In this document: positions 17,340-42,361 of the stretch, one piece after another
Layout: each line of letters opens with the position of its first letter
Numbering within the stretch: position 1 is the first letter of the stretch
DNA from: a virus
Taxonomy: Duplodnaviria > Caudoviricetes
Virus record (IMG/VR): IMGVR_UViG_3300020577_008668
Location: 1-64,000 of that record
DNA length: 64,000 bases
Strand: one strand, 5' to 3'
Translations under genes and position numbers: made by a program
The notes under the pieces: model-generated
What the model saw: the letters and a program-made list of their open reading frames with translations, nothing else
Told to the model about the DNA's origin: nothing
The model's database searches: none

Positions 17340-17578
17340 TGGTGGCCGTGATGTCGTTCGGTGAGGACGCTCACGCTGCTATCGGCATCGGCTACGGCCA
17401 CGGCTACGGCTACGGCACCGGCTACGGTGACGGCTACGGCGACGGCTACGGCCGCGGGGATGGCTACGGCTACGGCCACGGCTACGGCTACGGCACCGGC
17501 TACGGTGACGGCTACGGCTACGGCTACGGCCACGGCTACGGCTACGGCTACGGCTACGGCTCCGGTTGCGGGTGGTGA
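17336..17578 (+). CDS. Gly-Tyr repeat protein (GYGDGYG)
   Basis: 80 aa, almost entirely GY/GD/GH. Confidence 0.6.
   Translation: MMVAVMSFGEDAHAAIGIGYGHGYGYGTGYGDGYGDGYGRGDGYGYGHGYGYGTGYGDGYGYGYGHGYGYGYGYGSGCGW
17390..17560 (+). repeat. GGCTAC-based tandem repeat
   Basis: Directly visible hexamer array. Confidence 0.9.
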
Positions 17579-17730
17579 CCGTGATGTTGTTCGGTGAGGA
17601 CGCTCACGCTGCTATCGGCATCGGTGATGGCTACGGCTACGGCTACGGTGATGTCGCTCCGAGAAACCAACCCATGACCGCACCTGTGTTCCAACATTTC
17701 TGCCCCGACTATCACACCGAGGAACCCTGA
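17575..17730 (+). pseudogene. Fusion of remnants: GYG-gene head plus HFCPD-gene tail
   Basis: MTVMLFGEDAHAAIGIGDGYGYGYGD...QHFCPDYHTEEP; 17581-17624 repeats 17348-17391 (44 nt, 1 mismatch). Confidence 0.55.
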
Positions 17731-17767
17731 TGACTGACCGACCTTTGTCCCCGAAGGAGAACGATAA

Positions 17768-18583
17768 GTGACCACCCGAACTCTTGATCTTGACACGCTT
17801 GTCCTCGCCGTTGGAGCCCATTCAGCGACGAAAGACGACATGTGTGTCATGGAGGCTGTAGCGTTCATCGCTGGCGAACCATGGTCCGACCATCCCGACT
17901 GCGCTTCCCCTGTCATCGGAGCGTTCCTCCGCACCTGGAACGACTCACTTCCCGACGCCGACCGTCAGACGTTGAAGCAGTACATCCCGCGCCTCGTCGG
18001 CTCGAAGGGCACCACAGCGCAGGAAGATCATCGAGCGTGGATGGCGTTGGATTGGTTGGTGCGGGTGCACACTCCGGCGTGGTTGCGGTTGGCGGGTTTG
18101 GTCGATCAGGCGGATCTGCTCGCTGGTCTCGCTGAGGTGGATGCGGGGACGTGTCCGTCGATCAAGCCGATGTTGGAAGCGGTGCGCATGGACGCTGCCG
18201 CCGCTTGGGCCGTCGTTCGGGCCGTCGCTTGGGCCGTCGCTCGGGACGCCGCTCGGGATGCCGCTTGGGACGCCGCTCGGGACGCCGCTCGGGACGCCGC
18301 TCGGGACGCCGCTCGGGATGCCGCTTGGGACGCCGCTGGGGACGCCGCTTGGGCCGTCGCTGGGGATGCCGCTCGGGGCGCCGCTCGGGGCGCCGCTCGG
18401 GATGCCGCTGGGGCCGTCGCTTGGGCCGTCGCTGGGGATGCCGCTCGGGGCGCCGCTCGGGATGCCGCTCGGGACGCCGCTCGGGATGCCGCTCGGGACG
18501 CCCTCGCTCCCACCGTGACCGAACTCCAAACCTCAGCGCATGACCTCATCGACCGGATGCTCGCCGTCACCGAAACAGCATAA
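17768..18583 (+). CDS. Phage protein with AARD/AAWD tetrapeptide repeats
   Basis: 271 aa, SD GAAGGAG; CVMEAVA...PWSDHPDCASPV...WND N-domain, then AAxx repeats. Confidence 0.85.
   Translation: MTTRTLDLDTLVLAVGAHSATKDDMCVMEAVAFIAGEPWSDHPDCASPVIGAFLRTWNDSLPDADRQTLKQYIPRLVGSKGTTAQEDHRAWMALDWLVRVHTPAWLRLAGLVDQADLLAGLAEVDAGTCPSIKPMLEAVRMDAAAAWAVVRAVAWAVARDAARDAAWDAARDAARDAARDAARDAAWDAAGDAAWAVAGDAARGAARGAARDAAGAVAWAVAGDAARGAARDAARDAARDAARDALAPTVTELQTSAHDLIDRMLAVTETA
18200..18502 (+). repeat. 12-nt tandem repeat GCCGCTCGGGAY / GCCGCTTGGGNC
   Basis: Directly visible; it also generates the spurious overlapping ORFs here. Confidence 0.9.
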
Positions 18584-18696
18584 TGACCCGCCCTGTCCTC
18601 TACATCGCCGGGCCGTACACCGCGCCGGACCCATCACAACGTGCACAAGGCGGTGATGTTCGCTTCCCACTCAATGGGGAATTATGGTCTAGGTAA
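18583..18696 (+). pseudogene. Remnant MTRPVLYIAGPYTAPD... running across the island's right junction
   Basis: YIAGPY start typical of DUF4406/DUF1937-like proteins; frame lost after PDP. Confidence 0.55.
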
Positions 18697-18705
18697 CAAA
18701 AGCGG

Positions 18706-19095
18706 ATGTTATCATCCGCTATGGATTTTGACGGGGTTACCCTAACTTGCACACTAGAAACTTGGACTCCAGAAATTTTTTTTAGTAACAGGAAGAAGTG
18801 CTATCAACAAGTGAAACAGTCTAGGGAAATTTTTGACCATCTACCTCACGACAATAAAGAGGCAGTCCTCGATATGATTAAGCGAGCCCTTTTTCTAGCG
18901 GCGGACGAAGTTGAGCTATGGGTTCCTTCAGCTTTTTCATCCGATAGGATTTCGGATACTTTAGTTGTTCAGTTGAAACTTTCAGCATCTCAAGTCGATG
19001 CAGCTATTGCTGATCGGAAAAAATACACATCTAAACGACTAGCTGAGATAATTGCTGAAGTAGAAGCTGACTTAGACGAGTTTGATGTTTCATGA
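18706..19095 (+). CDS. Hypothetical protein
   Basis: 129 aa with backbone codon style; ATGA-coupled to the resolvase. Confidence 0.6.
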   Translation: MLSSAMDFDGVTLTCTLETWTPEIFFSNRKKCYQQVKQSREIFDHLPHDNKEAVLDMIKRALFLAADEVELWVPSAFSSDRISDTLVVQLKLSASQVDAAIADRKKYTSKRLAEIIAEVEADLDEFDVS

Positions 19096-19484
19096 AACCC
19101 TCAACGGCTAAGGCGAAAGGGCGTGAATGTGAAAAGGCTTGGGTTAATTTCCTGAAAGAGAATGGTGTTCCTAACGCCGAACGACGACGACTCAACGGAG
19201 TCGAGGATCGTGGAGACATTTCGGGCTGGAATTCATCGGAGGCTCAGGAACATGGTGGATGGCGGATTTGTTCCGAGGTGAAATCGGGTGGAGTAATTAA
19301 AACAGCTGAATGGTTGAGAGAGCTAAAGGCAGAGATCACAAACGATAATTCTGACTCTGGTCATATCGTTGTGCGTCCCAAGGGGAAGCCTCGGGTTGAG
19401 GATTGGTTCGTGATCATGGACGTTCTCGGCTTTATGGATTTAATGAGTCGAGCCGGTTTCATCCCATGGCAGCCAGATGATTGA
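19092..19484 (+). CDS. Holliday junction resolvase-like PD-(D/E)xK nuclease
   Basis: KAKGRECEK...ERRRLNGVEDRGDI...SEVK. Confidence 0.8.
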   Translation: MKPSTAKAKGRECEKAWVNFLKENGVPNAERRRLNGVEDRGDISGWNSSEAQEHGGWRICSEVKSGGVIKTAEWLRELKAEITNDNSDSGHIVVRPKGKPRVEDWFVIMDVLGFMDLMSRAGFIPWQPDD

Positions 19485-19710
19485 CGCATTTGGTCAGGAG
19501 CTTTATGAGGGTGATAAAGTTGTAGCAATTGCTACTATGAAATCTACGCAGACCTTGTATAAGGGAACTGTCGTAGGTTTTTCTGGTTCTTGTGTTAATG
19601 TGAGAATGGATGAGATGTCTAACTGTGATACTTTTTGGTTTGATATCTATCAGCCTGAACAGGGAGAAGAAAAGCGCATCTGCGTGTCTCATAGATTGGC
19701 AAAGATATGA
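19477..19710 (+). CDS. Small SH3/KOW-like hypothetical protein
   Basis: DAFGQELYEGDKVV...GTVVGF. Confidence 0.6.
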   Translation: MIDAFGQELYEGDKVVAIATMKSTQTLYKGTVVGFSGSCVNVRMDEMSNCDTFWFDIYQPEQGEEKRICVSHRLAKI

Positions 19711-20426
19711 AGCTCGTTGTAGGGTGTCCTGTGTCAAATCGGAACTGGATTCTTCCTGAGTGGAATCAGCATGTTCTTTCATCTGTGTTTGATCTGGTAG
19801 AGAGAGATAGTAGAGACTGGGACCTAGAGTACGCTTTTGTTGTTCCATCTGGAGACACTGAAACGCTTTCTGTTTTATCTTCTTTTGATACCTCCACCTT
19901 TACTTTGACGAGAGATGAGCCTGAAGTTGCTGTTCGTCGTCGTTGGGGGCCTGATCGTTATCAGAATATGGTAGAATCAAGAAATGCTCTTTTGGGGCTT
20001 GTTAGGGAACTTTCTCCTGATTTTTTCCTTTCACTGGATTCAGATATTCTTTTGCATCCTACTGCCATTTCAAAAGCTTTAGAATTATTCAGGGATGGGG
20101 TTTGGGCAGTAGGATTAGCAACGTACTTAACTCCCCGAGGGAATACTGTTCCTAATATGGGAAGTTGGTTGGATCAATCCTATATTAGATACTCTCGAAA
20201 AGATTACCCTGAAGCTACAACCTGTGATATTCTGATGGCAGCTAAGTTAATGAAACCTGAAGCATACCAAGTCGATTACGAGTATCACCGCTCAGGAGAA
20301 GACTTGGGTTGGTCTAGGGCTCTGAAAAGGGCAGGTGGTAAAGTTATGTGGGATGGTAGGGTGAAGAATAAGCATGTGATGGAGCCTGAGCATCTCTCTC
20401 AGGTAGATGAGAGGGTCGGGTTCTGA
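19707..20426 (+). CDS. GT-A fold glycosyltransferase (GT2-like)
   Basis: SRNALL...LSLDSDILL (DxD)...GEDLGWS...KH. Confidence 0.8.
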   Translation: MKLVVGCPVSNRNWILPEWNQHVLSSVFDLVERDSRDWDLEYAFVVPSGDTETLSVLSSFDTSTFTLTRDEPEVAVRRRWGPDRYQNMVESRNALLGLVRELSPDFFLSLDSDILLHPTAISKALELFRDGVWAVGLATYLTPRGNTVPNMGSWLDQSYIRYSRKDYPEATTCDILMAAKLMKPEAYQVDYEYHRSGEDLGWSRALKRAGGKVMWDGRVKNKHVMEPEHLSQVDERVGF

Positions 20427-21196
20427 TGGATTTACAACTTATAGTGGTGAACTATCACACCTACCCTCTGCTTCAGCAGTTTATTGATTCTTATGAGGAG
20501 TTTAAGCCATCCATTAATTCAAGCCTGTTGATCTATGATGTAGAGTCTACTCCCGAGATTCATGATATCCGCAAATATGGGAATGAATTGATTAGAGATG
20601 CAAAAAATTGCGGGTACGCTAGGGCCTGTAACTATGGTACCTTCTTAAGTGGTAGGGCTAGAAACTTTGCTTTCTTCAATGCTGATACTCGATTCAATAA
20701 TGAGAGTTGTGTGGATTATTGTGTGGACTTTCTGGATAGTAATGATAATGTGGCTGTTGTTGGGCCTTTGCAGTATTCCTCCAGCGGGAAGACGACTCAT
20801 GGTGGGATATTTGGTAGCAACGAGAAACCGGCCTTTCGGCACTGGAACAAACCTGTCTCTGACTCTGTAAGAGATAATAGGGAGGCTGTGACTGTCTCAG
20901 GGTCAGCCTATTTTGTAAAGGGGATGGTGTGGAGAGAAATGAGGAATTGTCCGGTATTTCGGCATGCTTTTCCTTCTGCTATAGGGGGTTTCCCTGACCT
21001 TCCTCACGGGTATGAAGAAACATTGTTTTCTTACCACAGCAGAGCACATGGTTACGAAGTTTGGTATTTGGGTAAAGCAGAAATGGAGCATGACTGGCAT
21101 CAGTCCTCTCCGGTGGGGTCTCAGTCAGATAAGTTCAAAGAGGGACGAGAGCGGTTTAGATCGTTCTGTAGAGCACATGGGATAGAATGTGATTGA
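20426..21196 (+). CDS. GT2 glycosyltransferase
   Basis: IVVNY, NCGYARACNYG, FFNADT, VSGS, YEET, H.W..S. Confidence 0.88.
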   Translation: MDLQLIVVNYHTYPLLQQFIDSYEEFKPSINSSLLIYDVESTPEIHDIRKYGNELIRDAKNCGYARACNYGTFLSGRARNFAFFNADTRFNNESCVDYCVDFLDSNDNVAVVGPLQYSSSGKTTHGGIFGSNEKPAFRHWNKPVSDSVRDNREAVTVSGSAYFVKGMVWREMRNCPVFRHAFPSAIGGFPDLPHGYEETLFSYHSRAHGYEVWYLGKAEMEHDWHQSSPVGSQSDKFKEGRERFRSFCRAHGIECD

Positions 21197-21833
21197 TGTA
21201 GTTATTGCCTGGAACCCTCGAACCACTGATCCTTGGAGATGTCGCTCCAGGGAATTTGTGCTTTCTATGTGGGAGTCTTACGGGTACACTGTGATATGGG
21301 GACTGGATGATTCTGAGCCCTTTAACATTTCTAAGGCTAAGAATAACGGGGTTCGTCAAGCTTCATCTAGTAAAGTTGTCATAGCTGACGCTGATGTTGT
21401 CATTAGCAAGCAGCAGGTTGAAGAGGCTCTTGCTAAAGAGCATTGGGTTATTCCGTACGAAACTTATTTCAACTTAACTCAAGCCCATACGAAAGAATTT
21501 CTTGACGGCGTTCGGGAACTAGGTGATTGCCAGTGGGATCATCGCATACTTTCTTGGGCTGGCATGATGGTTGTTGAAAGGCAAGCCTACTGGGATGTTG
21601 GTGGGCATGATGAAAACTTTAGTGGATGGGGATGGGAAGATGTAGCCTTGCGGTTGGCTCTAGATAATCTTTACTTTCAGCATGAAAGGGTAGCTGGGGG
21701 TATTTATCATCTGTGGCATCCTGTTTCTGAAGTTGAGACTTTCGGATCAGATGATTGTGCTCGAAACAAAGCTCTCTTTAAAAAAGAGTATAAGGATAGG
21801 TATAACTGGAGAGATGAGAGGTTAAAGTGGTAA
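21189..21833 (+). CDS. GT2 / galactosyltransferase-C-domain glycosyltransferase
   Basis: FNISKAKNNG, IADADV, GGHDENFSGWGWED, YHLWH. Confidence 0.88.
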   Translation: MIDVVIAWNPRTTDPWRCRSREFVLSMWESYGYTVIWGLDDSEPFNISKAKNNGVRQASSSKVVIADADVVISKQQVEEALAKEHWVIPYETYFNLTQAHTKEFLDGVRELGDCQWDHRILSWAGMMVVERQAYWDVGGHDENFSGWGWEDVALRLALDNLYFQHERVAGGIYHLWHPVSEVETFGSDDCARNKALFKKEYKDRYNWRDERLKW

Positions 21834-22645
21834 TCTATCTTGACAAATTTGTTGGTCGGTTGGGCAATCAGCTTTTCCAAATAGCTTCCACGGTTGGAAT
21901 TGCCCGACTGAGGGGGCTTGAGCCGCGTTTTCCTGAATGGGATTATGCTCCAGTTTTCAATATTCCTGAAGAGTTCTTTGAGTCGTTCGATGATGAGCTT
22001 AGAATGAATGTTCTAGATTGCGCTAGTGAGTTGGATGAACGTGAACGAGTTTACTTACAGAACGTACAGTACTTTGATCATGTAAGAGAAGAGATCCTTC
22101 AAATGTTTTCACCATCTTCTGCTGCTGAAGATATTATTGATCCATCTGTGAGAACTTTGCGGGAAATTTCACAAACAGGATCAGTTCTTTCAATTCATGT
22201 CCGTCGAGGTGACATTCTTTCTCATCCTGAGTATCATCCTGTTCGTAGCATCCAGTATTATGCTGATGCTCTCGAAGAGGTTGGTTCTTATGACTCGGTT
22301 GCTGTTTTTTCTGATGACGTAGAATGGTGTGCTAAAGTTCTTGCTCCTAAGCTCGGTCTGAGGGTGGATTTTTATGGGTCAGGGATTTCTCGTTCCCCTA
22401 TCCCCTCTCAGTATGAGAAGGATGGGCCAGTTGATTGGCAGGATTTATTTTTAATGAAAGCCTGTTCTTCTCATGTCATTTCTAATTCCACTTACGCTTG
22501 GTGGGGGGCGTATCTTTCAGAGGATAAGCATCCGATCTATCCCTCTAACTGGTTTGGTCGTGAGCTACAAAATCAGGCTCATCCTGAGTTGCTTTTTCCC
22601 GATTTGTGGATTCAGGTGCATGATGACACGCAGGGAGGCATTTGA
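21827..22645 (+). CDS. GT11 alpha-1,2-fucosyltransferase-like glycosyltransferase
   Basis: GRLGNQLFQ, SIHVRRGD, VFSDDVEW, DLFLM..C..HVISNSTYAWWGAYL. Confidence 0.92.
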   Translation: MVIYLDKFVGRLGNQLFQIASTVGIARLRGLEPRFPEWDYAPVFNIPEEFFESFDDELRMNVLDCASELDERERVYLQNVQYFDHVREEILQMFSPSSAAEDIIDPSVRTLREISQTGSVLSIHVRRGDILSHPEYHPVRSIQYYADALEEVGSYDSVAVFSDDVEWCAKVLAPKLGLRVDFYGSGISRSPIPSQYEKDGPVDWQDLFLMKACSSHVISNSTYAWWGAYLSEDKHPIYPSNWFGRELQNQAHPELLFPDLWIQVHDDTQGGI

Positions 22646-23271
22646 TGCTGTTCGAATGGGGTGATGTTACCAAATATTTTCAAAAGACAATTACGGGTGT
22701 TCTTCATGTAGGAGCCCATTTAGCTGAAGAAGCTCCTCTTTACGAGGACTTGGGGGTTTCTAATGTTTGGTGGGTTGAAGGTAATCCTTCGGTCATGGTT
22801 AAGCTGGATCACATTTTAAGAAGCTATCCTTCTCATCGGTACGTCCAAGCTCTCGTCTTTGAAGAAGATGGGGTTGAGCTAGATTTCCATGTGACGAATA
22901 TTGACGGAATGAGTTCTTCTATTTACGAATTCGGGACTCATACTCAGTTTAGTCCAGACATTGAATTTGTTCAGCATTTCAAGCTTTTAACGAAGACCAT
23001 TGATACAATTGTTGAGGAAAATAACATAGAGGACATCAACCTTATCAACTTGGATCTCCAAGGGGCGGAGTTGCCTGCTCTTAAGGGTGCTTCAAAACTT
23101 CTCGAAGGAGTTGATTACATTTTGACTGAGGTTAATAAAGCTGAGGTTTATAAGGGGTGCACTAAGATTCAGGAACTTGGTGAGTTCTTGGAGGATTTCG
23201 TTAGAGTTGAGACTCATTGGGTAGCTAACCAAGGGTGGGGCGACGCTCTATTTGTTAGGCGGGAGTCGTGA
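22642..23271 (+). CDS. FkbM-family SAM methyltransferase
   Basis: LHVGAH, SSSI, TKTID, NLDLQGAELPALKG, TEVN. Confidence 0.9.
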   Translation: MMLFEWGDVTKYFQKTITGVLHVGAHLAEEAPLYEDLGVSNVWWVEGNPSVMVKLDHILRSYPSHRYVQALVFEEDGVELDFHVTNIDGMSSSIYEFGTHTQFSPDIEFVQHFKLLTKTIDTIVEENNIEDINLINLDLQGAELPALKGASKLLEGVDYILTEVNKAEVYKGCTKIQELGEFLEDFVRVETHWVANQGWGDALFVRRES

Positions 23272-24008
23272 CTAACATTCATGTTTTGATCCCTTCATAT
23301 AATTGTGCTCAGTGGGTTGAGCGGGCTTTAGATTCTGTAGAGGATCAGTCTTTCCAGCCTAAAAGTGTCCTACTGATAGATGATTGTTCAGACGAGCCAA
23401 ACTATTCGCAGTTAGCTTTACAACAGTGTCAAAATAGAGGGTACTCTTATCTTCGAAATAATGTGAACGAAAAATGTCCTTATAATCTTTGGATGGGAGT
23501 GAAAGTCCTCAATCCAGATCCTGAGGATGTTATTTTCTTACTTGATGGGGATGATTTTCTTCCCGCCCCAGGAACTTTAGCTAGAATAGCTGAGGTGTAT
23601 GCAGATCCGAATGTGTGGCTTACGTATGGCAACTATGAGCCGTACCCGGTAAATACTGGTCAGGTAGCTGCTTCTTCCTACGACATAGATGTCATTCAGG
23701 AAAGAAATTTTCGTCAATCAGGGAATTTTTTCAATCATCCAATAACTTTTCGGCGGTTCTTGTTCGACGAGATCAGGGATGAGGACCTGAAAACAAACGA
23801 TGGTAGATGGTTTCGTGGAGGTTACGACTTTGCTATAATGATGCCAATGTTAGAGATGTGTGGTCAAGAGCACTTTTGTTTTATCGACGAAGTTTTGTAC
23901 ATCTATAATGCCATCAACCCTATTTCCGATTCTCATGTCAATGTGAAGTTGATTAATGAAACGGATCAGCTTCGTAAACGCCCTAAGAGGGAAAGGTTGA
24001 TTAGATGA
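23268..24008 (+). CDS. GT2 glycosyltransferase
   Basis: IPSYN...LDSV..Q, IDDCSD, LLDGDD. Confidence 0.88.
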   Translation: MTNIHVLIPSYNCAQWVERALDSVEDQSFQPKSVLLIDDCSDEPNYSQLALQQCQNRGYSYLRNNVNEKCPYNLWMGVKVLNPDPEDVIFLLDGDDFLPAPGTLARIAEVYADPNVWLTYGNYEPYPVNTGQVAASSYDIDVIQERNFRQSGNFFNHPITFRRFLFDEIRDEDLKTNDGRWFRGGYDFAIMMPMLEMCGQEHFCFIDEVLYIYNAINPISDSHVNVKLINETDQLRKRPKRERLIR

Positions 24009-24715
24009 TCTCATTCACTCAACATTGTCAGGCAGAAAGTCCGATGAACGTCTTCTCTCAAAATGGGGAAGATGGGGTTATTCAGGCTATTTTTGACTTG
24101 ATTAAGCCTGAGACTATGACATGCATGGAATTCGGAGCCGCCGACGGGTTCTTTTGCTCAAATACAGCTTATCTTTGGAGTAGGTGTGGGTGGGAGGCTA
24201 CTTTAGTAGAGTCAGATAATGTCCTTTTTAAGGGGCTAGAACAAGCAACTAAGCGAAGTGATAAAGTCAGATCATTTCATGACATGGTTACTAACCCAGA
24301 CGATTTCTGCCCAGAAGTTTTGGATCTGATCTCCATAGATGTAGATGGGGAAGATTTTAACATTTGGGAACGATCAAAGGTTCGTCATAGGGTTGTTGTT
24401 ATTGAGCATAATCCTACTTTCCCTCCTCATGTGGAGATGCACGCCGGACAGTGGGTCGGGGCATCAGCAGCTTCCTTGGTGCGATTGGGTGAGTTGAAGG
24501 GGTATAGTTTCCTTATGGCAACTAAAACAAACTGCTTCTTTGTGAGAAACGAAGATGCTGAAGTGTTTGACCGGTTTGACTGTTCCTTAAGAAATAACTT
24601 CGAGTCCTCTAGTCTTAACTATGTTGTCACTGATTATCATGGAAACTTTGACGTAGTGGGTTCCCTCCCCTATGGGATGAACTGGAAAGTAGAGTTTGGA
24701 ATGCATTATGAGTGA
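24005..24715 (+). CDS. FkbM-like methyltransferase
   Basis: FSQNGEDGVI, EFGAADG, SIDVDGED, VVIEHNP. Confidence 0.8.
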   Translation: MISFTQHCQAESPMNVFSQNGEDGVIQAIFDLIKPETMTCMEFGAADGFFCSNTAYLWSRCGWEATLVESDNVLFKGLEQATKRSDKVRSFHDMVTNPDDFCPEVLDLISIDVDGEDFNIWERSKVRHRVVVIEHNPTFPPHVEMHAGQWVGASAASLVRLGELKGYSFLMATKTNCFFVRNEDAEVFDRFDCSLRNNFESSSLNYVVTDYHGNFDVVGSLPYGMNWKVEFGMHYE

Positions 24716-25325
24716 GTTCCGTGCTGACTTTTTGGCCTGGGTAGATGCTGAGTTAGAGACACCAAAGGCGTCTGTCCCCGAAGAAGTGAAGTGGGGACTT
24801 CTTCTTGAATTGGCCGAAGAGTACCATTTGCGGACTTTAATCGAAACTGGCACAGCTGTCGGGGACACTATCCTTCATATTCAAAATCACTTCGAAGAAA
24901 TCCATTCTTTTGAAATCATGGAAACCTACTATGAGGTTGCTGCTCGGAACACGGAAGGCCTTCTTCACGTTACCTTGTACAATTCGTCGTCAGCTTCGTC
25001 GGAATTTAGGGAGCTAGTGAATAAGCAGCCTGATGCTTGCTTAATCTACTTGGACGCTCATTACTCAGGTGAGGGAACGGGGAAAGACCTTACTCTTATT
25101 ACTCCAGACGTTCCCATTCGCCAGGAACTTGACGTGATCCTTCAGTCGAATGTTGATCATGTTATTGTTATTGATGATGCTAGGTGTTTTAAGGGGGAGG
25201 CTTTTTACACTGATGAGTATTTGGGGTACCCTTCACGCAGCGAAATTCAGGAGCAGGTGGCTGAGTTTTATGATGTTGCTCATGTAGCAGATGCTTTTGT
25301 TCTTCACCCGAAAGGATGGGATTGA
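24708..25325 (+). CDS. Class I SAM methyltransferase-like protein
   Basis: LIETGT..GD, SFEI, YLDAHYSG, P...EL, IVIDDAR. Confidence 0.75.
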   Translation: MSEFRADFLAWVDAELETPKASVPEEVKWGLLLELAEEYHLRTLIETGTAVGDTILHIQNHFEEIHSFEIMETYYEVAARNTEGLLHVTLYNSSSASSEFRELVNKQPDACLIYLDAHYSGEGTGKDLTLITPDVPIRQELDVILQSNVDHVIVIDDARCFKGEAFYTDEYLGYPSRSEIQEQVAEFYDVAHVADAFVLHPKGWD

Positions 25326-25327
25326 GA

Positions 25328-26287
25328 ATGACGACTGTAGCAGTAAGTGGTGGTGGTGGGTTCATCGCAGGTCATTTAATTAAGAGACTTTTAGAAGAGG
25401 GTTTTGATGTAGTTACCGCAGACATTAAACCCCTAGATGAGTGGCACCAGATTTTTGAGGGGGTTCCCTCCTTAAGTTCTTTTGATTTATCTGTCACTGA
25501 AAATGCTGAAAGTTTTCTAGATTTCGACGTGGATCAGGTTTATCATTTAGCCGCTGACATGGGTGGCATGGGTTTCATTAGTCAACATGAGGTTGAAACT
25601 GTTCATAGTTTTGATATAACTTCGAGACTTTTAAAAGCGACTGACGGACAAAGGTTCTTTTTTTCTAGTAGTGCTTGTACTTATCCTGAATATAAGCAGC
25701 TAACCTCTGAAGAGGTTTCTCTTAAAGAATCTGACGCTTATCCGGCTGATTGCGATACTTCGTATGGGTGGGAAAAATTATATGGAGAACAGGCTTTAGC
25801 TGCTTATCAGCGTGCTGATCTATTGGAAACTCGGGTAGCTCGGTTTCATAACATTTTTGGACCTCAGGGAACTTGGGACGGTGGGCGAGAAAAGGCTCCA
25901 GCTGCTATTTGCCGGAAGGTTGCTACAGCTTTAAAAACGGGTATTCATGAGATTGAGATTTGGGGGGACGGGGAGCAGACTCGTAGCTTCTTGTATGTGG
26001 ATGAATGTGTTGAGGGTATTCGTCGCATTATGGATTCGGATTTTTCAGAGCCTCTGAATCTTGGATCGGATGAGTGTGTTTCTATTAATCAGCTTGTTTC
26101 AATGGTTGAGGAAATCGCTGGGGTGAGCTTAAGCCGAATCTACAATCTTGATGCACCCCAAGGTGTGCGCGGGCGGAATTCAAACAATACTTTGATTAAA
26201 GAAGTTCTTGGTTGGGCTCCGTCAGCAAAATTGTATGATGGACTAGAAAGAACGTATGCATGGGTTTACGACCAAGTTTCAGTGTAA
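25328..26287 (+). CDS. NAD-dependent epimerase, GDP-mannose 3,5-epimerase-like
   Basis: GGGGFIA, HLAADMGGMGFI, SSACTYP, YGWEK, RFHNIFGP.GTWDGGREKAPAAICRKV, GVRGRNS. Confidence 0.88.
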   Translation: MTTVAVSGGGGFIAGHLIKRLLEEGFDVVTADIKPLDEWHQIFEGVPSLSSFDLSVTENAESFLDFDVDQVYHLAADMGGMGFISQHEVETVHSFDITSRLLKATDGQRFFFSSSACTYPEYKQLTSEEVSLKESDAYPADCDTSYGWEKLYGEQALAAYQRADLLETRVARFHNIFGPQGTWDGGREKAPAAICRKVATALKTGIHEIEIWGDGEQTRSFLYVDECVEGIRRIMDSDFSEPLNLGSDECVSINQLVSMVEEIAGVSLSRIYNLDAPQGVRGRNSNNTLIKEVLGWAPSAKLYDGLERTYAWVYDQVSV

Positions 26288-26865
26288 TCATCGCCACCTA
26301 TGGAGATCCCTCATGGAGAACTTTGGCGGAAAGGGCTGCTCGTTCTGTGGAAGAACAGTCAGTCCAGCCAGATAGTTTGATTCTATCACATGCTGATACT
26401 CTTCATGAGGCTAGGAATAATCCAGTAAAGAGTCTCACTAGCGATTGGCTTGTTTTTCTTGACGCCGATGACCAGTTGGATTACCACTACATTAAGTCAA
26501 TGAGGGATAGGTCTATCGAGATAGGAAATGAGGATTTTTTGATTCAGCCAAGTACGCTTGGCGTCCAAAATGGAATCGAAGATGATTTTCCAACTTTTAT
26601 TCCTGAACGAGACATTCAGCTAGGGAACTGGATGGTTATCGGGACAGCCGTGAAGAGGGATACCTTTTTGCGAGCTGGGGGGTTTCCCGACCTTCCCTGC
26701 TGGGAGGATTGGGCTCTTTGGGCTCAGTGCGTTCATAACGGAGCTAGTACGACTATCGCCCCTGGGGCGGTTTATCGCGTTACGGTCAATAAGAACAGTA
26801 GGAATAATCCAACTCGATCAGATGCTGCTACAGCCGCTCGTTTTGTGAGGAGGATCTTTCAGTGA
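26260..26865 (+). CDS. GT2 glycosyltransferase
   Basis: VIIATY, ARNN, FLDADD, GGF..LPCWEDW. Confidence 0.85.
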   Translation: MGLRPSFSVIIATYGDPSWRTLAERAARSVEEQSVQPDSLILSHADTLHEARNNPVKSLTSDWLVFLDADDQLDYHYIKSMRDRSIEIGNEDFLIQPSTLGVQNGIEDDFPTFIPERDIQLGNWMVIGTAVKRDTFLRAGGFPDLPCWEDWALWAQCVHNGASTTIAPGAVYRVTVNKNSRNNPTRSDAATAARFVRRIFQ

Positions 26866-27617
26866 AAATCCATGGCCTTTCAGTTATGAGAAATGAAGCA
26901 GACAGGTATCTTGCAGATTGTCTGCAATGGAACCTACCTTTTTTTGATGATTGGTTTATCTGGGACGATAGGTCTACTGATGGGTCTGTTGATCTTGCTG
27001 AGACTTTGAGTGAGAAAATCACTGTAGGTGTTAGGGGGATGACTGATCTTTCTTTTATGGAACATGAAGGCCGGTTTCGTCAGGATGGTTGGGAGGCTTT
27101 CGAGAAGGCTATTCGACCTGAACATAAGGATGTCGTTGTTGCTGTCGATTTAGATGAGTTTATTACCTTAAAAGAGTCTTGTGATCCAGCTTATGTGAGG
27201 TCTGCTTTTGAGTCTTTTGCAGCGAAGGCAGGTGGGTATGTCTCGCAAGAGATTTCTTTTGTGGAGGTTTTTGATGTAGACCTTAGAGGGGTTCCTTCTT
27301 TCCGCACAGATGGGTTTTGGGGGAATATTTCGGGTAAGCGACTTTTTTCATACAAGGTTGGTGGAAAATTCCCTGATCGACCTATGGGGTGTGGGTCTGC
27401 TCCTGAGTATGTTTTGAAGACGTCCGCCTTAGGTGCTCATCCAGAGTTAAGGTTCCTTCATTATGGTTATGCTGTTTTTGAGGATAGGGTTGACAAGTTT
27501 GATCGGTATTCTTCTTTGGGAAATTCTGGGCATCATTCTTCCCATATTAATAGTATTTTGACTCTTCCCACATTACACCAGTGGGCAGGCCCACATCCCT
27601 TTTTGTCTGAAAAGTAA
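26862..27617 (+). CDS. GT2-like glycosyltransferase
   Basis: MRNEA..L, DDRSTDGS, VDLDEF, LHYGY. Confidence 0.82.
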   Translation: MKIHGLSVMRNEADRYLADCLQWNLPFFDDWFIWDDRSTDGSVDLAETLSEKITVGVRGMTDLSFMEHEGRFRQDGWEAFEKAIRPEHKDVVVAVDLDEFITLKESCDPAYVRSAFESFAAKAGGYVSQEISFVEVFDVDLRGVPSFRTDGFWGNISGKRLFSYKVGGKFPDRPMGCGSAPEYVLKTSALGAHPELRFLHYGYAVFEDRVDKFDRYSSLGNSGHHSSHINSILTLPTLHQWAGPHPFLSEK

Positions 27618-27655: not shown

Positions 27656-28330
27656 ATGCCAGCTAAGAAAAATCCAGAGTTTGATATCGCTGATCTAATT
27701 GAAGACAGCTCTTCTCTACAAGAGGCTCCTGTTTACGTGGAGGGGCCATCAGGGTCCAGGTATCAGGTGCTTAACCAGTTTGAGGCTGATCACTACAAGT
27801 CTTTATCTGAAAGATATCAGGAAGATAACGTTCTAGAGAATGTTTCTGATGTCCAGGAACTCGATCGTATTCTCATGATGGAACTGATGATGTACCGCTG
27901 GGGGCTTTGGTTGATCCAAGAGAAAGACTATGATGATAAGAGGGTTAATCCTTCTGAGTTGCAAAAAAGCATCTCTTCTTACTCTAAGGAGATTCGTGAG
28001 ATCAAAAAAGATCTAGGAATGGATAAGAGCACCAGGGATAAGGATCAAGGTGAATCCCTATCGGGTTACATTCAGAACCTTTTGAGAAGGGCTGAGGAAT
28101 TTGGTATTTCTCGTAATGATCAGGCGGTTGAGGCGATTAATACGCTCATGGAGCTGAGGGGGTACATTACCCTTTACCGAAATTCAAATGATGCTGAACG
28201 CAAAGAATTTCACGTCACATTAGAAGAGATCATTCAGTGGTGCGAAAAGAGTTTCGAAAAATTTGATGAGATTGATGCGGCCTTGAGAGAAAATCAAAAA
28301 TACTGGATTCACGACATTTCTAAGGTGTGA
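27656..28330 (+). CDS. Helical protein, candidate terminase small subunit
   Basis: SD GGAGG; position upstream of terL; function inferred from position only. Confidence 0.45.
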   Translation: MPAKKNPEFDIADLIEDSSSLQEAPVYVEGPSGSRYQVLNQFEADHYKSLSERYQEDNVLENVSDVQELDRILMMELMMYRWGLWLIQEKDYDDKRVNPSELQKSISSYSKEIREIKKDLGMDKSTRDKDQGESLSGYIQNLLRRAEEFGISRNDQAVEAINTLMELRGYITLYRNSNDAERKEFHVTLEEIIQWCEKSFEKFDEIDAALRENQKYWIHDISKV

Positions 28331-28334
28331 CGAT

Positions 28335-28865
28335 ATGGCAACACGGAAAAGTTGGGATGATAAATTTGAGGAAATCGCTAAAGAATTTCCCTTGGTTAGA
28401 AGGTTTAATTGGGAAACAGCTATTCTGAATGATTCAGATTTATTTACTACCTTGCTGGCTGATGTTATAAAGTCCGGGCGTAAGTTAAAAAAACCGGGGA
28501 AACGCCCAAGTTTGTCACGTAAGGACTCTGAGGAGAAATTAAGTCAGCTTGCTGCTGAGGACTTTAGTGAGTTAGAGTTCAAAGATGCTTTCATTGCTCT
28601 TTCTTCTAATCGAAGTATCCGGCACACTGCTAGTAAGACTGGGTTAGATAGAAATATTGTTTACGGCTTATTGAATGGAACCCGACTTCCTTCATTCAGG
28701 GAGATGGAGCAAATTGCTTCTTCGTTCGGGAAAGACCCAAGTTTCTTTTTGGAGTATAGGATTGGGTTTGTTCTTTCTAAAATGAATCAGTTTCTTTTTT
28801 CCTCGCCGGAAACAGCGGCATTTTGGTACAAGAACTTTAAGTCTGATGTGATTACGATTTCATAA
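28335..28865 (+). CDS. XRE-type HTH protein
   Basis: SIRHTASKTGLDRNIVYGLLNGTRLPSFREMEQIASSFG. Confidence 0.75.
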   Translation: MATRKSWDDKFEEIAKEFPLVRRFNWETAILNDSDLFTTLLADVIKSGRKLKKPGKRPSLSRKDSEEKLSQLAAEDFSELEFKDAFIALSSNRSIRHTASKTGLDRNIVYGLLNGTRLPSFREMEQIASSFGKDPSFFLEYRIGFVLSKMNQFLFSSPETAAFWYKNFKSDVITIS

Positions 28866-28877
28866 GAGGACGGGTTT

Positions 28878-30944
28878 ATGAGCAAGGTTTTGACTAACTT
28901 AACCGAACAGGAACGGTACTTGGTATCACTGCTCACTGATCGTTCAGGGATAGATCAGTTTGAGTTCATGATTTATGACCCAGCTTTCCGAGAAAATGAC
29001 GGGCTTTTTAGGGCTTGGCCTTTTCAGTATCACTGGTTCCGATGTAAGGACCCTTTGGTCATTAGCCAGGGTAGTCGAAGTGCTGGGAAGAGTCAGTCGG
29101 CTGTGCTGTCGGCTTTAGCTTTCCCGTTCACTTATCCTGGACAAGAGATGGTTATTACAGCCCCAGAGTCTGTTCATTTGCAGGCTTTAACTGATAAGAT
29201 CGAAACAATGTTTGTGAACAACAGGCTTCCTAGGGACATGCTGGTTAGGGGAGCTGCGGGTATTAAGCATAAGCCTTTTTTGTGTAATTTCAAAAATGGG
29301 GCCAGGATCATGGGGCGGATTCCTCAAAGAGATGGTCGTGGAATGAAGGGTTGCCCTAAGGCCGATACTCCTATTCTGACAGATGCTGGAATTAAGAGAG
29401 CTGATGAGGTTCTTGTTGGAGATAGGGTGGTTAATCATCGGTTGGAGTGGGCTGATGTCACTCAGGTGATTCATGATACGAATACATGCTATGAGGTAAC
29501 TGATATTGAAGGAAACTCTATCACTGTTTCTTGGGAGCATCGTTTTTACGGAGCAGCCAAGGAGGCTTCTGGGTTTTCTGAAATGTACTTTGAGGAAGTA
29601 GATTATCTTTTAGAAGATAATTTTTTTTGGGCTATCCCGGTTGGTGAGTATGAGGGCGACCAAGTTCATGAGGAACGGAATGGGTATTTTCTTGTAGAAG
29701 TTGTTTCTGTAAGAGATGTTGGTGTTCAGTCTATTACTAATATTATTGTTAAAGATGGGCATAGTGTTCTTACGGGAAACATCATGTCTCACAATGTCCA
29801 TCCAACAGTTCTTCTACTTGATGAGGGACAGGACTATAGTCAGCAGGGTTTCGAGGAGCTTATCGAAACAGTTCTTCAGGGAGTAGAGGGAGCCCAGTGG
29901 AAGGTGTTTGGGGTAACTCGCGGTGTTCGGGATAAGTTCTATGAGTACACTCATTCTGAGGCTTGGACAGTGTTTCGTCTTCCTGCCATGTTTCGTCCTA
30001 CGTGGAATGATGCGGAACGGGCTTTGAAAGAAAGCCAGTATGGTAAACCAGATTCACCTGGCTACCGCAGAAACGTTCTTGGCTTACACGGGGACCAAAA
30101 TTCGAGCATTTTTGTCCTGTCGCGATTGATGGCCTGTTGTGACACAAGTCACTCCAGCTTTTACAATGAAAATGAATACTGGAATATCGAATTCGATGAT
30201 TCTGACGTTGAGGAAGCTGGTGACATCATTAGTCTAATTGATCCACCAGGCACTCACGCTAAGTATAAGAACTTTTGGATTGGGTCTGACATTGGATGGA
30301 CTTTAGCCCCGACAGTGATTGTTATTTTTGCGGAAATTGCAGAAAAAGGGAAGGAACCCTCACTGAAACTATTGGGTCGGATCACTATGCGTCGAATTAA
30401 GACGATTGATCAGGCAGACGTTTTTATACACCTTATCAATACGTATAGACCTTTGGCTTTTGCTATGGACTCTACCGGGGCGGGGTTTCCTCTTCTAGAA
30501 CTGATCCAGGAAAAGGCTAGAACTCATGATGAGCTATATAGCGTTGTGGAAAGGATTAAGGGCTATAATTTTAGCGAGAAGGTTGTAGCCGAGTTTGATG
30601 ATACAGTGGAAATTGACGAGGATGATCCTGAGGGATACAAGAGGGCTGAGATTAGAAAGCCAGTTCTAGTTTGGGCTACCGATGTGCTTAGGATGCTTGT
30701 TGATGAAAAGAGACTTATCCTTCCGTGGGATAAGGAGCTTATTGGTGAGTTTCAGGGTCAAACTGTTACTTATGCAAAGGATGCGTTAGATCCATATGGG
30801 CGAAAAAGACTCTACTCATTTGGTTACTTCCACTCGTTGGATGCATGTCGAATGGCTGCTTTGGCTTTTAAGCAGAACGCTATCGAACAGTTTATTAAGA
30901 ATCAGGAAGATAGTTGGGAGGCCCCGTCAGCTATCTTCTTGTAA
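28878..30944 (+). CDS. terL: Terminase large subunit with a Hint insertion
   Basis: Walker A SRSAGKS, Walker B LLLDEG, coupling motif FGVT, nuclease IGSDIG, AMDSTGAG, HSLDA. Confidence 0.9.
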   Translation: MSKVLTNLTEQERYLVSLLTDRSGIDQFEFMIYDPAFRENDGLFRAWPFQYHWFRCKDPLVISQGSRSAGKSQSAVLSALAFPFTYPGQEMVITAPESVHLQALTDKIETMFVNNRLPRDMLVRGAAGIKHKPFLCNFKNGARIMGRIPQRDGRGMKGCPKADTPILTDAGIKRADEVLVGDRVVNHRLEWADVTQVIHDTNTCYEVTDIEGNSITVSWEHRFYGAAKEASGFSEMYFEEVDYLLEDNFFWAIPVGEYEGDQVHEERNGYFLVEVVSVRDVGVQSITNIIVKDGHSVLTGNIMSHNVHPTVLLLDEGQDYSQQGFEELIETVLQGVEGAQWKVFGVTRGVRDKFYEYTHSEAWTVFRLPAMFRPTWNDAERALKESQYGKPDSPGYRRNVLGLHGDQNSSIFVLSRLMACCDTSHSSFYNENEYWNIEFDDSDVEEAGDIISLIDPPGTHAKYKNFWIGSDIGWTLAPTVIVIFAEIAEKGKEPSLKLLGRITMRRIKTIDQADVFIHLINTYRPLAFAMDSTGAGFPLLELIQEKARTHDELYSVVERIKGYNFSEKVVAEFDDTVEIDEDDPEGYKRAEIRKPVLVWATDVLRMLVDEKRLILPWDKELIGEFQGQTVTYAKDALDPYGRKRLYSFGYFHSLDACRMAALAFKQNAIEQFIKNQEDSWEAPSAIFL
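29352..29795 (+). mobile_element. Mini-intein / Hint domain (148 aa) with non-nucleophilic +1 Val
   Basis: CPKADTPILTDAG, VGDRV, block B TVSWEHRFY, block F/G ITNIIV..GHSVLTGNIMSHN, then GTC (Val). Confidence 0.85.
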
Positions 30945-35474: not shown

Positions 35475-36434
35475 ATGGCTAGATACACTATTGAAAAGCA
35501 GTTCTCTCGTGAAGAGGAAAAAGCTCTAGGTCGTCAGCTTCAGGCTCTCAATGATGAGGCAAAAGTCCAGCTGAACAGCGCCAACGCTGAGCAGTGGCTT
35601 TCTGAGCGTGCTCAGGAAATGACTGACGCAATCTACGAGGGGTTCAAGCATGAGAATCTGATTTCTCTGTTCTCGAACGTTGTCAATGTTCCTTGGGAGC
35701 AGCGGGTCACATGGTCCGAGGTTCGGGGCATGAAGGCTTATTGGCTGGCTCGCGGTGGTTACATTGAGGCTAGCTCGGTTCATAAGGAAGTAGCGGAAGT
35801 CGAACGTGACATCGTTGGGTTCCATGTCTACGAATTCCTTGAGAAGCTGGAAGCGAACTTTGGCGAAACTGCTTCAACTCTGATTGATCTTGGTACTGAA
35901 CGTCTTGATGCTGAGATTAACTCTCGTTTCTTCACTATGGTGCAAGAGGCTGTGGGGGTTGGTCACCAGAACTACCATACTGGTTCCGGTATTTCACTGG
36001 CAACAGTGAACGAGGCGATTGGTGCGGTACGTGACGCATCCAAGCAGCAGAATGTTGCTATTGTTGGTCGAGCTGGGGTACTTAACTCTCTCATGTTCGA
36101 ACTGATGGGAACTTCTCTTAACGGAAGCGGTTTCCTTCCTTCGACGAACGAGCAGATCATTCGTGATGGTATTCTGGGTACTTACCTGGGCGCACCTCTG
36201 GTACCTCTCGTTAATTATCTTGATGATAATGATGAGAGCTACTTCCCTGCGAATGAGATGTATGTGATTGCTCCTGATGCATCCAAGTGGGTGTTCTGGG
36301 GTAGTTCACGGTCTTCGTCTTGGGTTGAGGATGATGCTGATTACTGGCATTTCCGCCTCAAGAAAGAGACCGGTGGCGTGATCCATCACAGCAATCGTAT
36401 CGCCCGGCTTGTGGATACCTCGGTTGCTCCTTGA
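35475..36434 (+). CDS. Major capsid protein
   Basis: 319 aa, SD GGAGG, strong codon bias, followed by a terminator; HK97-like G.LGTYLGAPLV. Confidence 0.75.
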   Translation: MARYTIEKQFSREEEKALGRQLQALNDEAKVQLNSANAEQWLSERAQEMTDAIYEGFKHENLISLFSNVVNVPWEQRVTWSEVRGMKAYWLARGGYIEASSVHKEVAEVERDIVGFHVYEFLEKLEANFGETASTLIDLGTERLDAEINSRFFTMVQEAVGVGHQNYHTGSGISLATVNEAIGAVRDASKQQNVAIVGRAGVLNSLMFELMGTSLNGSGFLPSTNEQIIRDGILGTYLGAPLVPLVNYLDDNDESYFPANEMYVIAPDASKWVFWGSSRSSSWVEDDADYWHFRLKKETGGVIHHSNRIARLVDTSVAP

Positions 36435-38756: not shown

Positions 38757-39917
38757 ATGCAGAAGTTTAGGTTTCACCTTTTAACTCTTCCTCATGTTTC
38801 AACAACCCGCAAGTTTACGCTTTGTGCTTACGAGAGTAAGTGTAGGCGGTTTGCTGACATGATGTCGGGTATGGGGCATGATGTCTTTTTGTATGGTGGT
38901 CCAGAAAATGATGCCCAGGTTACTGAGCACATTGTGGTCGCCTCCCAAAAGGATCAGGAAGAGTGGTTCGGTGACTATGATTGGAAGAGGGATTTTTTCA
39001 ATATTTCCTGGAATCCGAATGATGAGCACTGGAAAATAACTAACCAGCGTACTGTAGAAGAGATTAAGAAAAGAATTAAACCTAGAGACATCATTTTAGT
39101 TACAGCAGGTCTTTGTCAGAAGTCGGTGGCTGACGCTTTCCCTAATCACATTAGTACTGAGTGGACTATCGGGTATACGGGGACGTTCTCTAAGTATAGG
39201 GTGTTTGAGTCTTACCCTCATATGGCATATTGCTCAGGTTTAGCTAATGATGATAATGGATCTTTTTTCGATACGGTCATTCCTAACTTTTTCGATCCTG
39301 ACGAGTTTTCTACTCAGGAAGAGAAGGATGATTACTTTTTATTCATTGGTAGACTGATTCCACGTAAGGGTCCTGAGATCGCTGTAGAGGTCACTAAGCG
39401 TCTTGGGGCTAAACTTGTGATGGCAGGTCAGGGCGTCGCTTATACGGACCCTGGGAGGGTTGTGGCGACTGATGGGACAGTTTACGAGGGTGACCATATT
39501 GAGCATATTGGTTCCGTGGGGATAAGGGAACGGGCTGAATTGATGGGTAAGGCTCGTGCTACTTTTGTCCCAACCACCTATTTAGAGCCGTTTGGTGGGG
39601 TAAGTATTGAGTCTTTAATGTGTGGGACCCCGGTTATTGCCTCAAATTTCGGCTGCTTCCCAACAACTATTCAGCACGGACTGGATGGGTTTTTGTTTAG
39701 TACCATTGGTGAGGCTGTGTGGGCTGCTAAAAATGTTGAGTCTTTGAACTTTAAAGATATTGCTATTCGTGCCCGCAGGAATTATTCAACAGATCGAGTG
39801 AAGTGGCTCTATCAGTCATATTTCGAACAGTTGTTCACTTTATGGGATGATGGTTTTTACTCTGATTGGGATAACGGGATAAGGGAATATAGTAGGTATG
39901 TGAGGGATTATGGATAA
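38757..39917 (+). CDS. GT4 (GT-B) glycosyltransferase inside the neck module
   Basis: FLFIGRLIPRKG, EPFGGVSIESLMCGTPVIASNFG (EX7E). Confidence 0.92.
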   Translation: MQKFRFHLLTLPHVSTTRKFTLCAYESKCRRFADMMSGMGHDVFLYGGPENDAQVTEHIVVASQKDQEEWFGDYDWKRDFFNISWNPNDEHWKITNQRTVEEIKKRIKPRDIILVTAGLCQKSVADAFPNHISTEWTIGYTGTFSKYRVFESYPHMAYCSGLANDDNGSFFDTVIPNFFDPDEFSTQEEKDDYFLFIGRLIPRKGPEIAVEVTKRLGAKLVMAGQGVAYTDPGRVVATDGTVYEGDHIEHIGSVGIRERAELMGKARATFVPTTYLEPFGGVSIESLMCGTPVIASNFGCFPTTIQHGLDGFLFSTIGEAVWAAKNVESLNFKDIAIRARRNYSTDRVKWLYQSYFEQLFTLWDDGFYSDWDNGIREYSRYVRDYG

Positions 39918-41092: not shown

Positions 41093-42361
41093 ATGAGTAT
41101 TCGTGGTTCACAAATTTTACATGACGTCAATGGTTTCGTCGTAGACCGCATTCAGACCGCAGGTCCGGGTGCTCTGAACATTCCTGAAGAGAAGGTTTAC
41201 GAGCTGGGTAACTTTGAGACTCTTGCCACTGTGCGAGATATTCCTGACCTAACGTTCTCGTTAAACAGCTTCGATGTTTCTTGCGAATTTGAGGCTCTTC
41301 TCAATGGTCTTAACCCTACTGCTCTTACAGCTAATCAGGAAATTGACTTTACTCATCACGTTCCGATCGACGTAATCTCTCCGTTCAAGTCTCGACGAGG
41401 GGCTTTTAACATCGTTAAGGGTGTCGCTGTTCCTTATCTCACCCTAGAGAAAGCTAGTTACACATACGGTCTTCGTCAGAACGCCGCCCAGGAGTTCAGT
41501 CTTCGCGGCGACTCCATTTATTACACCCAAGGCCAGCCTTACTACAAGGAGTTCAATAACACCGTAAATGGTGTCGGCCCCTACAACTTCGGGATGACTG
41601 CTGACGTTTACACTGAGGGAGCGAACACCCTTTACGCCCTGTGTGTTGTTCTCGTTAACTCTACAACTGGAGCCTACAAGCGTCTCTTCTATGATGCTTC
41701 AGGTGACTCTGGGTACAGCAACACTTCCACCTCAGTTACTCTAGCGACGAACGAATCAGCCGCTTACGACATCTGTCGCATCGTGTGGTCTTCGTCCTCT
41801 ACTACTGGCTCGTACACTCAGAATGGCAACAACCCTAACGGTCATGATGTTCATCAGAATGTGTCGGTGAAACCTGCTGCTGTTCGCCCGAAGGATATTG
41901 ACGTGTACATCGGCACCGCTGGAGCAACCCCAGTGTTTACCCGAATGAACTCAGTTCAGTCAGCCCAGGTGGATTGGTCAGTTACTCTTGAGAACGATGA
42001 AGAGTTTGGTAATGCACACTATGTCGTTTCAGACTATGACGTTCCTGAAGTAACCGGAACTATCGGGATCAAGCCTTTTGATCCTGCGGATCTTTTCCAT
42101 AAACTGGCTCAGATTACTGGTGTTCCTAGCAACGAAGTGATCGGACCGGAACTGACTACCCCGGTTCCTCTTGAAGTTCGGATCAACCACCCTGATACGG
42201 GTGCCCGCCTGAAGACGATCTATGTTCCTGACGCCCGATTCCAGGTGCCTGGTATGCAGGGTCAGGTTCAGACGAAGCTAGAGAACACCTTCAACTTCAC
42301 TTCTGATACGGGTGTTATGAAGGTTTACAACGGGAACGGTCCTGGAGGGGCTAACGCCTGA
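41093..42361 (+). CDS. Major tail (tube) protein
   Basis: 422 aa, SD GGAGG, biased codons, followed by a terminator, TAC and TMP. Confidence 0.75.
   Translation: MSIRGSQILHDVNGFVVDRIQTAGPGALNIPEEKVYELGNFETLATVRDIPDLTFSLNSFDVSCEFEALLNGLNPTALTANQEIDFTHHVPIDVISPFKSRRGAFNIVKGVAVPYLTLEKASYTYGLRQNAAQEFSLRGDSIYYTQGQPYYKEFNNTVNGVGPYNFGMTADVYTEGANTLYALCVVLVNSTTGAYKRLFYDASGDSGYSNTSTSVTLATNESAAYDICRIVWSSSSTTGSYTQNGNNPNGHDVHQNVSVKPAAVRPKDIDVYIGTAGATPVFTRMNSVQSAQVDWSVTLENDEEFGNAHYVVSDYDVPEVTGTIGIKPFDPADLFHKLAQITGVPSNEVIGPELTTPVPLEVRINHPDTGARLKTIYVPDARFQVPGMQGQVQTKLENTFNFTSDTGVMKVYNGNGPGGANA

Follow-up and report, generated by a model that had tools for sequence, protein, structure and literature searches.

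What does a phage build with eleven sugar-related genes placed directly before its packaging genes? This question is raised by IMG/VR virus record IMGVR_UViG_3300020577_008668, a 79,615-bp viral contig (CheckV completeness 67%) whose first 64 kb form the window analyzed here. An earlier note, made from the letters of the window, had described a complete glycan biosynthesis operon at 19707-27617 and proposed that it decorates the virion. We found that the operon is phage-encoded and long resident, and that it specifies soluble enzymes for glycan assembly in the cytoplasm. Its product may be a glycan on virion proteins, a reading to which we give about an even chance.

Composition of the operon

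The operon consists of 11 co-directional genes on the + strand (g1-g11, Table 1) that fill 19707-27617. All of them are present as open reading frames (ORFs) where the note had placed consecutive, mostly overlapping genes, and neighbors overlap at all ten junctions, by 1-28 nt each. Its count of six GT2/GT-A glycosyltransferases (GTs), one GT11, three S-adenosylmethionine (SAM) methyltransferases (MTs) and one epimerase held in Pfam searches, profile comparisons, AlphaFold/Foldseek analyses and a protein atlas. The sequence of g9 clearly points to a GDP-mannose 3,5-epimerase (GME): it matched Arabidopsis GME (2c59) with an E value of 1.4e-89 over residues 8-321, compared to 1e-23 for the next short-chain dehydrogenase/reductase (SDR) family, and the catalytic segments were kept (the Cys in SSAC, YGxEK (Tyr-x3-Lys) and the Lys in GGREKAPAA). 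g4 matched the GT11 family (PF01531) with 71.1 bits, the cut-off being 23.9, over profile positions 121-269 of 298, and also phrog_2644; its homologues were present in 103 phage records, in which cyanomyoviruses predominate. g3 matched Pfam Glyco_tranf_2_2 and Glyco_transf_7C as well as phrog_1721 (E 7.5e-29), and 290 mycobacteriophage records contained homologues of it, among them gene 34 of Corndog-type and gene 19 of Omega-type phages.

Additional assignments involved weaker matches. No Pfam match was found for g1; a profile of 13 g1 homologues matched GT25 procollagen galactosyltransferase (E 3e-5) in the region of an invariant DSD motif, and the protein atlas positioned g1 in viral GT25/Anp1/GT2_4 clusters (0.98-0.99). 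g2 matched Pfam Glycos_transf_2 below the cut-off (E 3.6e-4) and g10 gave a weak Pfam GT2 match; their homologues in a related locus, L003, passed Glyco_tranf_2_3 and three GT2 models, respectively. The Pfam FkbM match of g7 was sub-threshold, and the top Foldseek matches of its AlphaFold model (predicted local distance difference test, pLDDT, 84) were all class I SAM MTs. g8 matched the SAM-binding region of class I MTs in a profile search (E 3e-4), with an atlas lead of 0.97. We also considered g1/g11 and g8/g5 as recent paralogues and rejected them, since profile-profile comparison showed no relationship; all-against-all BLAST detected no paralogy inside the block.

A transmembrane (TM) or signal-like segment was found neither in the 11 proteins nor in a separate GT4 encoded in the neck module (highest 19-residue Kyte-Doolittle mean, 1.2), and no Pfam family for a lipid-carrier initiating transferase, flippase, polymerase or GtrA/GtrB was detected within the block. 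The note had likewise seen no flippase, polymerase, lipid-carrier transferase, TM segment or signal peptide. Its description of the pathway as complete was overstated: no sugar-nucleotide synthase was found on the 79.6-kb contig (67% complete), and donors such as GDP-mannose must therefore come from the host.

Table 1. Features of the window that are discussed in the text (aa, amino acids; HTH, helix-turn-helix).
Feature	Coordinates	Strand	Description
Three small overlapping ORFs	18706..19710	+	129, 130 and 77 aa; without Pfam match; homologues at the same place in relatives
g1	19707..20426	+	GT-A glycosyltransferase, GT25-like; core
g2	20426..21196	+	GT2-like glycosyltransferase; core
g3	21189..21833	+	GT-A, 'galactosyl transferase' family phrog_1721; first gene of accessory module
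g4	21827..22645	+	GT11 glycosyltransferase (alpha-1,2-fucosyltransferase family)
g5	22642..23271	+	FkbM-family SAM methyltransferase; PF05050 E 1.5e-13, TIGR01444
g6	23268..24008	+	GT2 glycosyltransferase; PF00535 E 2.6e-14
g7	24005..24715	+	Class I SAM methyltransferase, FkbM-like
g8	24696..25325	+	Class I SAM methyltransferase
g9	25316..26287	+	GDP-mannose 3,5-epimerase (GME); predicted products GDP-L-galactose and GDP-L-gulose
g10	26260..26865	+	GT2-like glycosyltransferase; core
g11	26862..27617	+	GT-A glycosyltransferase (Glyco_tranf_2_4); core; PF13704 30.9 bits (cut-off 27.5)
Packaging unit	27656..30944	+	224-aa pre-terminase gene, 176-aa HTH protein, large terminase with intein
Major capsid protein (HK97 fold)	35475..36434	+	Candidate acceptor; AlphaFold pLDDT 87; Foldseek E 9e-14 to phage capsids including Che8
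GT4 (GT-B) glycosyltransferase	38757..39917	+	Neck/tail module; Pfam Glycos_transf_1, phrog_3408
Probable major tail protein	41093..42361	+	Candidate acceptor; assigned by position only, before chaperone-like gene and tape measure

Residence, modular architecture and genome context

The operon is long resident and not a recent insertion, as the note had supposed from its backbone-like codon style. Relative synonymous codon usage (RSCU) of the operon followed that of the structural genes (r = 0.90, compared to -0.17 for an adjacent GC-rich island). We further checked its occurrence in relatives, using as lineage anchor the conserved 224-aa pre-terminase gene, which has at least 306 metagenome homologues. 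This anchor gave 52 IMG/VR loci and 3 contigs of metagenome-assembled genomes (MAGs); 36 of the IMG/VR loci had a usable upstream flank, several of them being near-duplicates. All 11 genes were present in the same order in one relative (L009), with 51-76% amino acid identity, its structural genes being 58-74% identical. At least three GT genes were located directly upstream of the anchor in 23 of the 36 loci and partial sets in 2 more, and the 3 MAG contigs carried homologues of g1, g2 and g11. The GT-negative loci were a close relative (L026), L031, whose upstream flank is truncated, and a sub-clade of distant relatives (probable-portal identity <=37%); among 85 ORFs located upstream in GT-negative loci, Pfam detected no GT family.

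The operon is also modular, with a widespread four-GT core (g1, g2, g10 and g11) and a seven-gene accessory module (g3-g9) that includes the GT11 and the epimerase. Each core gene was detected in 17-21 loci (g1 in 21, g2 in 20, g10 in 17 and g11 in 20), and one locus, L028, possessed only these four of the 11 genes. Accessory genes occurred in 7-12 loci per gene, and their position relative to the core varied. The identity of g1, g2, g11 and g9 followed that of the probable portal gene, with correlations (r = 0.78-0.97) that are indicative only because the rows are non-independent. In two loci g5-g8 were more similar than the backbone predicts, a comparison of equally non-independent rows, which hints at module exchange.

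The phage is large, siphovirus-like and without a cultured relative, and is probably lytic; no integrase was found among the phage proteins annotated. Its lineage is environmental and non-actinophage (genome GC content 44%), and relatives reach 137-145 kb at 89-96% completeness. Megablast of the operon block against cultured phages gave no match, and the large terminase shared 41% identity with its counterpart in GX15bay, a phage known from a metagenome. The window codes for a ThyX-like protein, dCMP deaminase, RNA ligase, Dam methylase, a sigma-70-type factor and a CHAP lysin, and the rest of the contig for a primase-helicase, Pol III alpha, RecA and a second DNA methylase. The MAG contigs with core GTs (L061, L062 and L063; 47-149 kb) had been binned with two Candidatus Saccharibacteria and one Coxiellaceae; we set these taxa aside as hosts, regarding the assignments as probable binning of phage contigs. 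Among other features of the genome, a class II ribonucleotide reductase (10765-13788) contains an intein, as judged by LAGLIDADG/intein matches. Insertions are present in both this enzyme and the large terminase (28878-30944), and terminase intein content varies among relatives, in which tblastn matches fall in separate pieces. The tape measure protein (43598-51865, 2755 aa) implies a very long tail, and Ser/Thr residues account for 25% of another tail protein (58216-61278, 1020 aa).

The physical start of the operon is at 18706, as three small conserved ORFs run by overlap into g1. Its end is separated by 38 nt from the pre-terminase gene, and the operon has the same direction as all virion genes. 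Because a candidate promoter-like motif lies inside this 38-nt gap, co-transcription of the operon and the terminase genes is only a possibility. The motif, [GT][CT]CGT[TA]A, has 28 copies, 8 of which are in the intergenic 7.8% of the sequence; most precede late genes (10742, 33228, 34128, 36548, 37212 and 43572, with variants at 27626 and 40988), and it may act as a promoter for the phage sigma factor (9907-10695). Scans for sigma-70 promoters and terminators gave results at chance level. The edges of the operon showed two further features. The 7-mer CGGATGT occurs twice in the 64 kb, at 18703 and 27621, both copies being intergenic and one at each edge; the first lies within a hairpin (18701-18720) covering the start codon of the first small ORF. 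This pair could mark a regulatory or recombination boundary, but was spotted post hoc and may be due to chance. Directly upstream of the operon, the GC-rich island mentioned above (15890-18700, 62% GC) has, in contrast to the GT block, the appearance of foreign or mosaic DNA.

Predicted product and candidate acceptors

We infer the donor and acceptor specificities, order of action, expression timing and virion target of the system. g9 would convert host GDP-mannose to GDP-L-galactose or GDP-L-gulose, and g4 would probably transfer the L-sugar made by g9. GT11 enzymes use GDP-L-fucose, and L-fucose is 6-deoxy-L-galactose, which makes g4 a natural candidate for this step; the pairing is independently supported by the unrelated Synechococcus phage S-CAM9 (NC_031922, 146561-148476), in which homologues of GME and GT11 are adjacent. 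The six GT-A enzymes would add further sugars from host nucleotide sugars and the three SAM MTs would O-methylate sugars, implying a multi-sugar, methylated product. The core GTs probably build an acceptor-linked core, to which the accessory module would then add a variable, methylated outer part. The acceptor would be a phage protein made in the cytoplasm, such as capsid, tail tube or another virion protein. Gene context makes a virion protein the best-supported target: all enzymes are soluble, genes for a lipid carrier, flippase or polymerase are missing from the block, and the block lies against the virion genes. Such a system would parallel those of mycobacteriophages Che8, Corndog and Myrna.

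Two candidate acceptors offer leads. PHROGs had no match for the portal, tail and neck genes, and these labels are positional, with the exception of capsid and terminase. The C-terminus of the capsid protein (...R-I-V-D-[T/S]-S-[V/L/I]-x-[A/P]) is conserved across relatives in which overall capsid identity is only 35-66%. For its part, the probable major tail protein is 49-83% conserved in relatives and has 14 Ser/Thr in 30 residues (209-238) of a variable region, the most Ser/Thr-rich stretch among abundant virion proteins. The capsid motif and the tail-tube stretch are only leads to acceptor sites.

Several observations weigh against a virion acceptor. The capsid Ser/Thr motif was kept in L058, a relative without the operon, and does not clearly track the GT genes in a comparison with few GT-negative relatives. 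No C-terminal tag was common to the capsid and tail-tube candidates, the latter ending in a Gly/Asn-rich sequence. Only g3 of the seven GTs is related to the mycobacteriophage glycosylation enzymes, and no window protein matched gene 35 of the Corndog-type phage Dylan. A recognizable late-promoter motif was not found at the operon start, whereas its variant GTCGTAG precedes the packaging unit. In addition, the homologous GME and GT11 of cyanomyoviruses are usually read as host-surface ('LPS', lipopolysaccharide) genes.

The last point leads to the alternative that survives best, although we consider it unlikely: the enzymes may act on lipid-linked intermediates of the infected host and alter one of its surface glycans, with LPS, teichoic acid, S-layer or capsule precursors as conceivable targets; blocked superinfection or changed recognition are examples of what this could achieve. 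A role of this kind has been proposed for the cyanomyovirus 'LPS'/cell-wall clusters. The closest cultured-phage relatives of GME, GT11 and GT4 are in cyanomyovirus sugar clusters that are read in this way (PMC3037559, PMC12801897), and synthesis of envelope glycans is the usual role of the GT2 and GT25 families. However, all enzymes of the block are soluble and it lacks an initiating phosphoglycosyl transferase, flippase, polymerase, ligase or membrane-spanning protein. Its location beside the packaging and head genes is fixed in the lineage, and the phage looks lytic, with its own replication genes and no integrase among annotated proteins.

It is distinctly unlikely that the product has no role in the particle, being a soluble glycoconjugate or a glycosylated protein outside the virion (for example a host factor or a small molecule made during infection). 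Such a product would agree with the solubility of the enzymes, and FkbM-type MTs and GTs occur in natural-product pathways too, but no aglycone-synthesis genes were found in or near the block, its position against the virion module is constant across a deep lineage, and effector-type glycosylation of proteins does not usually involve a chain of several GTs.

Improbable, finally, is hypermodification, with the glycan built on bases of the phage DNA, as known from TET/5-hydroxymethylcytosine (5hmC)- or hydroxymethylase-dependent clusters that are often near the terminase. Clusters that glycosylate DNA do have GT-A/GT-B enzymes and epimerases close to terminase and structural genes (bioRxiv 10.1101/2023.12.21.572611), and the phage has a ThyX-like gene and dCMP deaminase. 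But this pair is in keeping with ordinary supply of dTMP, the phage has two DNA N-methylases, and known DNA glycans have 1-3 sugars (same source) compared to seven GTs and three MTs here. DNA glycosylation, which the note had ranked as less likely, needs a source of 5hmC or 5-hydroxymethyluracil (5hmU), and none was found: a ThyA-type hydroxymethylase (PF00303), C5-MT (PF00145) or TET/JBP (PF12851) was not detected on the 79.6-kb contig (67% complete), nor PF00303 or PF12851 in two operon-bearing relatives (96% and 89% complete), the PF12851 searches having no positive control. In one of these two near-complete relatives, the operon and a C5-MT gene are separated by about 15 kb.

Returning to glycosylation of virion proteins, the GT4 that the note had listed with the system is a real gene of the neck module, but is not a fixed part of it. 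It was absent from four of the five relatives searched, including the closest relative with the same 11 genes and two near-complete genomes (96% and 89%), as well as from GX15bay, and is an accessory gene of sporadic distribution, approximately 38% identical to cyanomyovirus genes adjoining tail genes. We considered GT4 as the initiating enzyme (primer) of the system; its sporadic distribution ruled this out.

A more specific form of the virion reading is possible, although we hold it only tentatively: a strain-variable virion sugar coat, in which the four-GT core would act on capsid or tail proteins and exchangeable modules would add methylated L-galactose-type sugars, with O-antigen-like locus evolution giving rise to environmental viral 'serotypes'. 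If such a coat exists, antibodies cannot be the selective force in the environment; stability, adsorption, or evasion of grazers or defences are suggested ecological purposes.

Relation to known systems

Phage-encoded virion glycosylation has so far been shown only in a few mycobacteriophages, where it is discussed as antibody shielding. Later papers summarize capsid and tail-tube glycosylation in phages including Corndog (PMC11600133, PMC12363180, PMC12619734), GTs that are essential for capsid glycosylation (Che8 gp110 and Corndog gp38; PMC12363180), and glycans at the C-termini of capsid and tail-tube subunits (PMC12619734). The cassettes involved (Che8 gp108-110, the Corndog-type O-MT and GTs, and Myrna) are similar to the present operon in having soluble GT/MT genes in or against the virion block, and belong to lytic or temperate siphophages. 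One GT, g3, belongs to the same GT family (phrog_1721) as genes in the Corndog-type (Dylan gene 34) and Omega-type (Minerva gene 19) cassettes among head genes; the other six GTs are unrelated to these systems. g3 was 27% identical to Dylan gene 34 (E 4e-14). In contrast to these cassettes, the operon has 11 genes rather than 3-6, is located upstream of the terminase and not between portal or capsid genes, and adds GME and GT11; it belongs to a non-actinophage lineage of 44% GC. The note's description of the pathway as much larger than known ones went too far, as Omega-type mycobacteriophages have five GTs and one MT among their head genes and cyanomyovirus clusters contain up to 13 GTs.

Chloroviruses and mimivirus use their own soluble GTs, sugar MTs and GDP-sugar enzymes to make methylated glycans on capsid or fibril proteins without host machinery; they differ in being eukaryotic giant viruses with unrelated enzymes.

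The 'LPS'/cell-wall clusters of cyanomyoviruses (S-SSM7, P-SSM2, S-CAM9, S-H68 and S-SCSM2R) are also large blocks of GT2/GT11/GT25, MT and epimerase genes, with bigger GT and epimerase sets and a function that is likewise unproven. Identities of their homologues were 45-47% for GME, 31% for GT11 and 38% for GT4. g9 matched 148 cultured-phage records, with GME-like genes among them; in the top matches listed the labels were generic, such as 'UDP-glucose 4-epimerase', and the S-CAM9 gene is annotated as nucleotide-sugar epimerase. Unlike the present operon, these clusters occur in T4-like myoviruses, near hli03, phoH or tail-fibre genes, and include sugar-nucleotide synthesis genes (Rml, UDP-glucose dehydrogenase and Kds).

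GX15bay (MK557849), from a mangrove soil virome, is a member of this phage lineage (terminase 41%, capsid 42% identity). Seven GT/MT genes form a block in the corresponding position of GX15bay, followed by homologues of the two small genes and by the terminase gene. Its block has homologues of g2, g10 and g11 but, unlike ours, is not accompanied by GT11, epimerase or GT4, and its sugar genes were treated by the authors as carbon-cycling auxiliary genes (PMC6460857). Two public labels of GX15bay look wrong: its 'epimerase' (33831-35048) is homologous to the probable major tail protein (46% identity), and its 'PhoH' (22352-25174) to the 573-aa gene that follows the terminase, the probable portal.

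Large sugar clusters in cyanomyoviruses, head-embedded GT/MT cassettes in actinophages and the GX15bay block as auxiliary metabolism have already been published. What is new here is the lineage-wide core-plus-accessory architecture, the GME-GT11 branch within a terminase-adjacent operon, and core GTs (g1 and others) for which sequence comparison found no relatives in cultured phages, including the cyanomyovirus clusters. A deeply conserved GT/MT/epimerase block in an environmental lineage with genomes of about 120-145 kb suggests that self-glycosylation has a longer history and a wider distribution than published cases indicate. The candidate system offers a four-GT core, a natural series of presence and absence among relatives, and a GME-GT11 branch for an L-sugar, which cyanophages share independently, and the same data could help explain the long-puzzling 'LPS' clusters of these phages.

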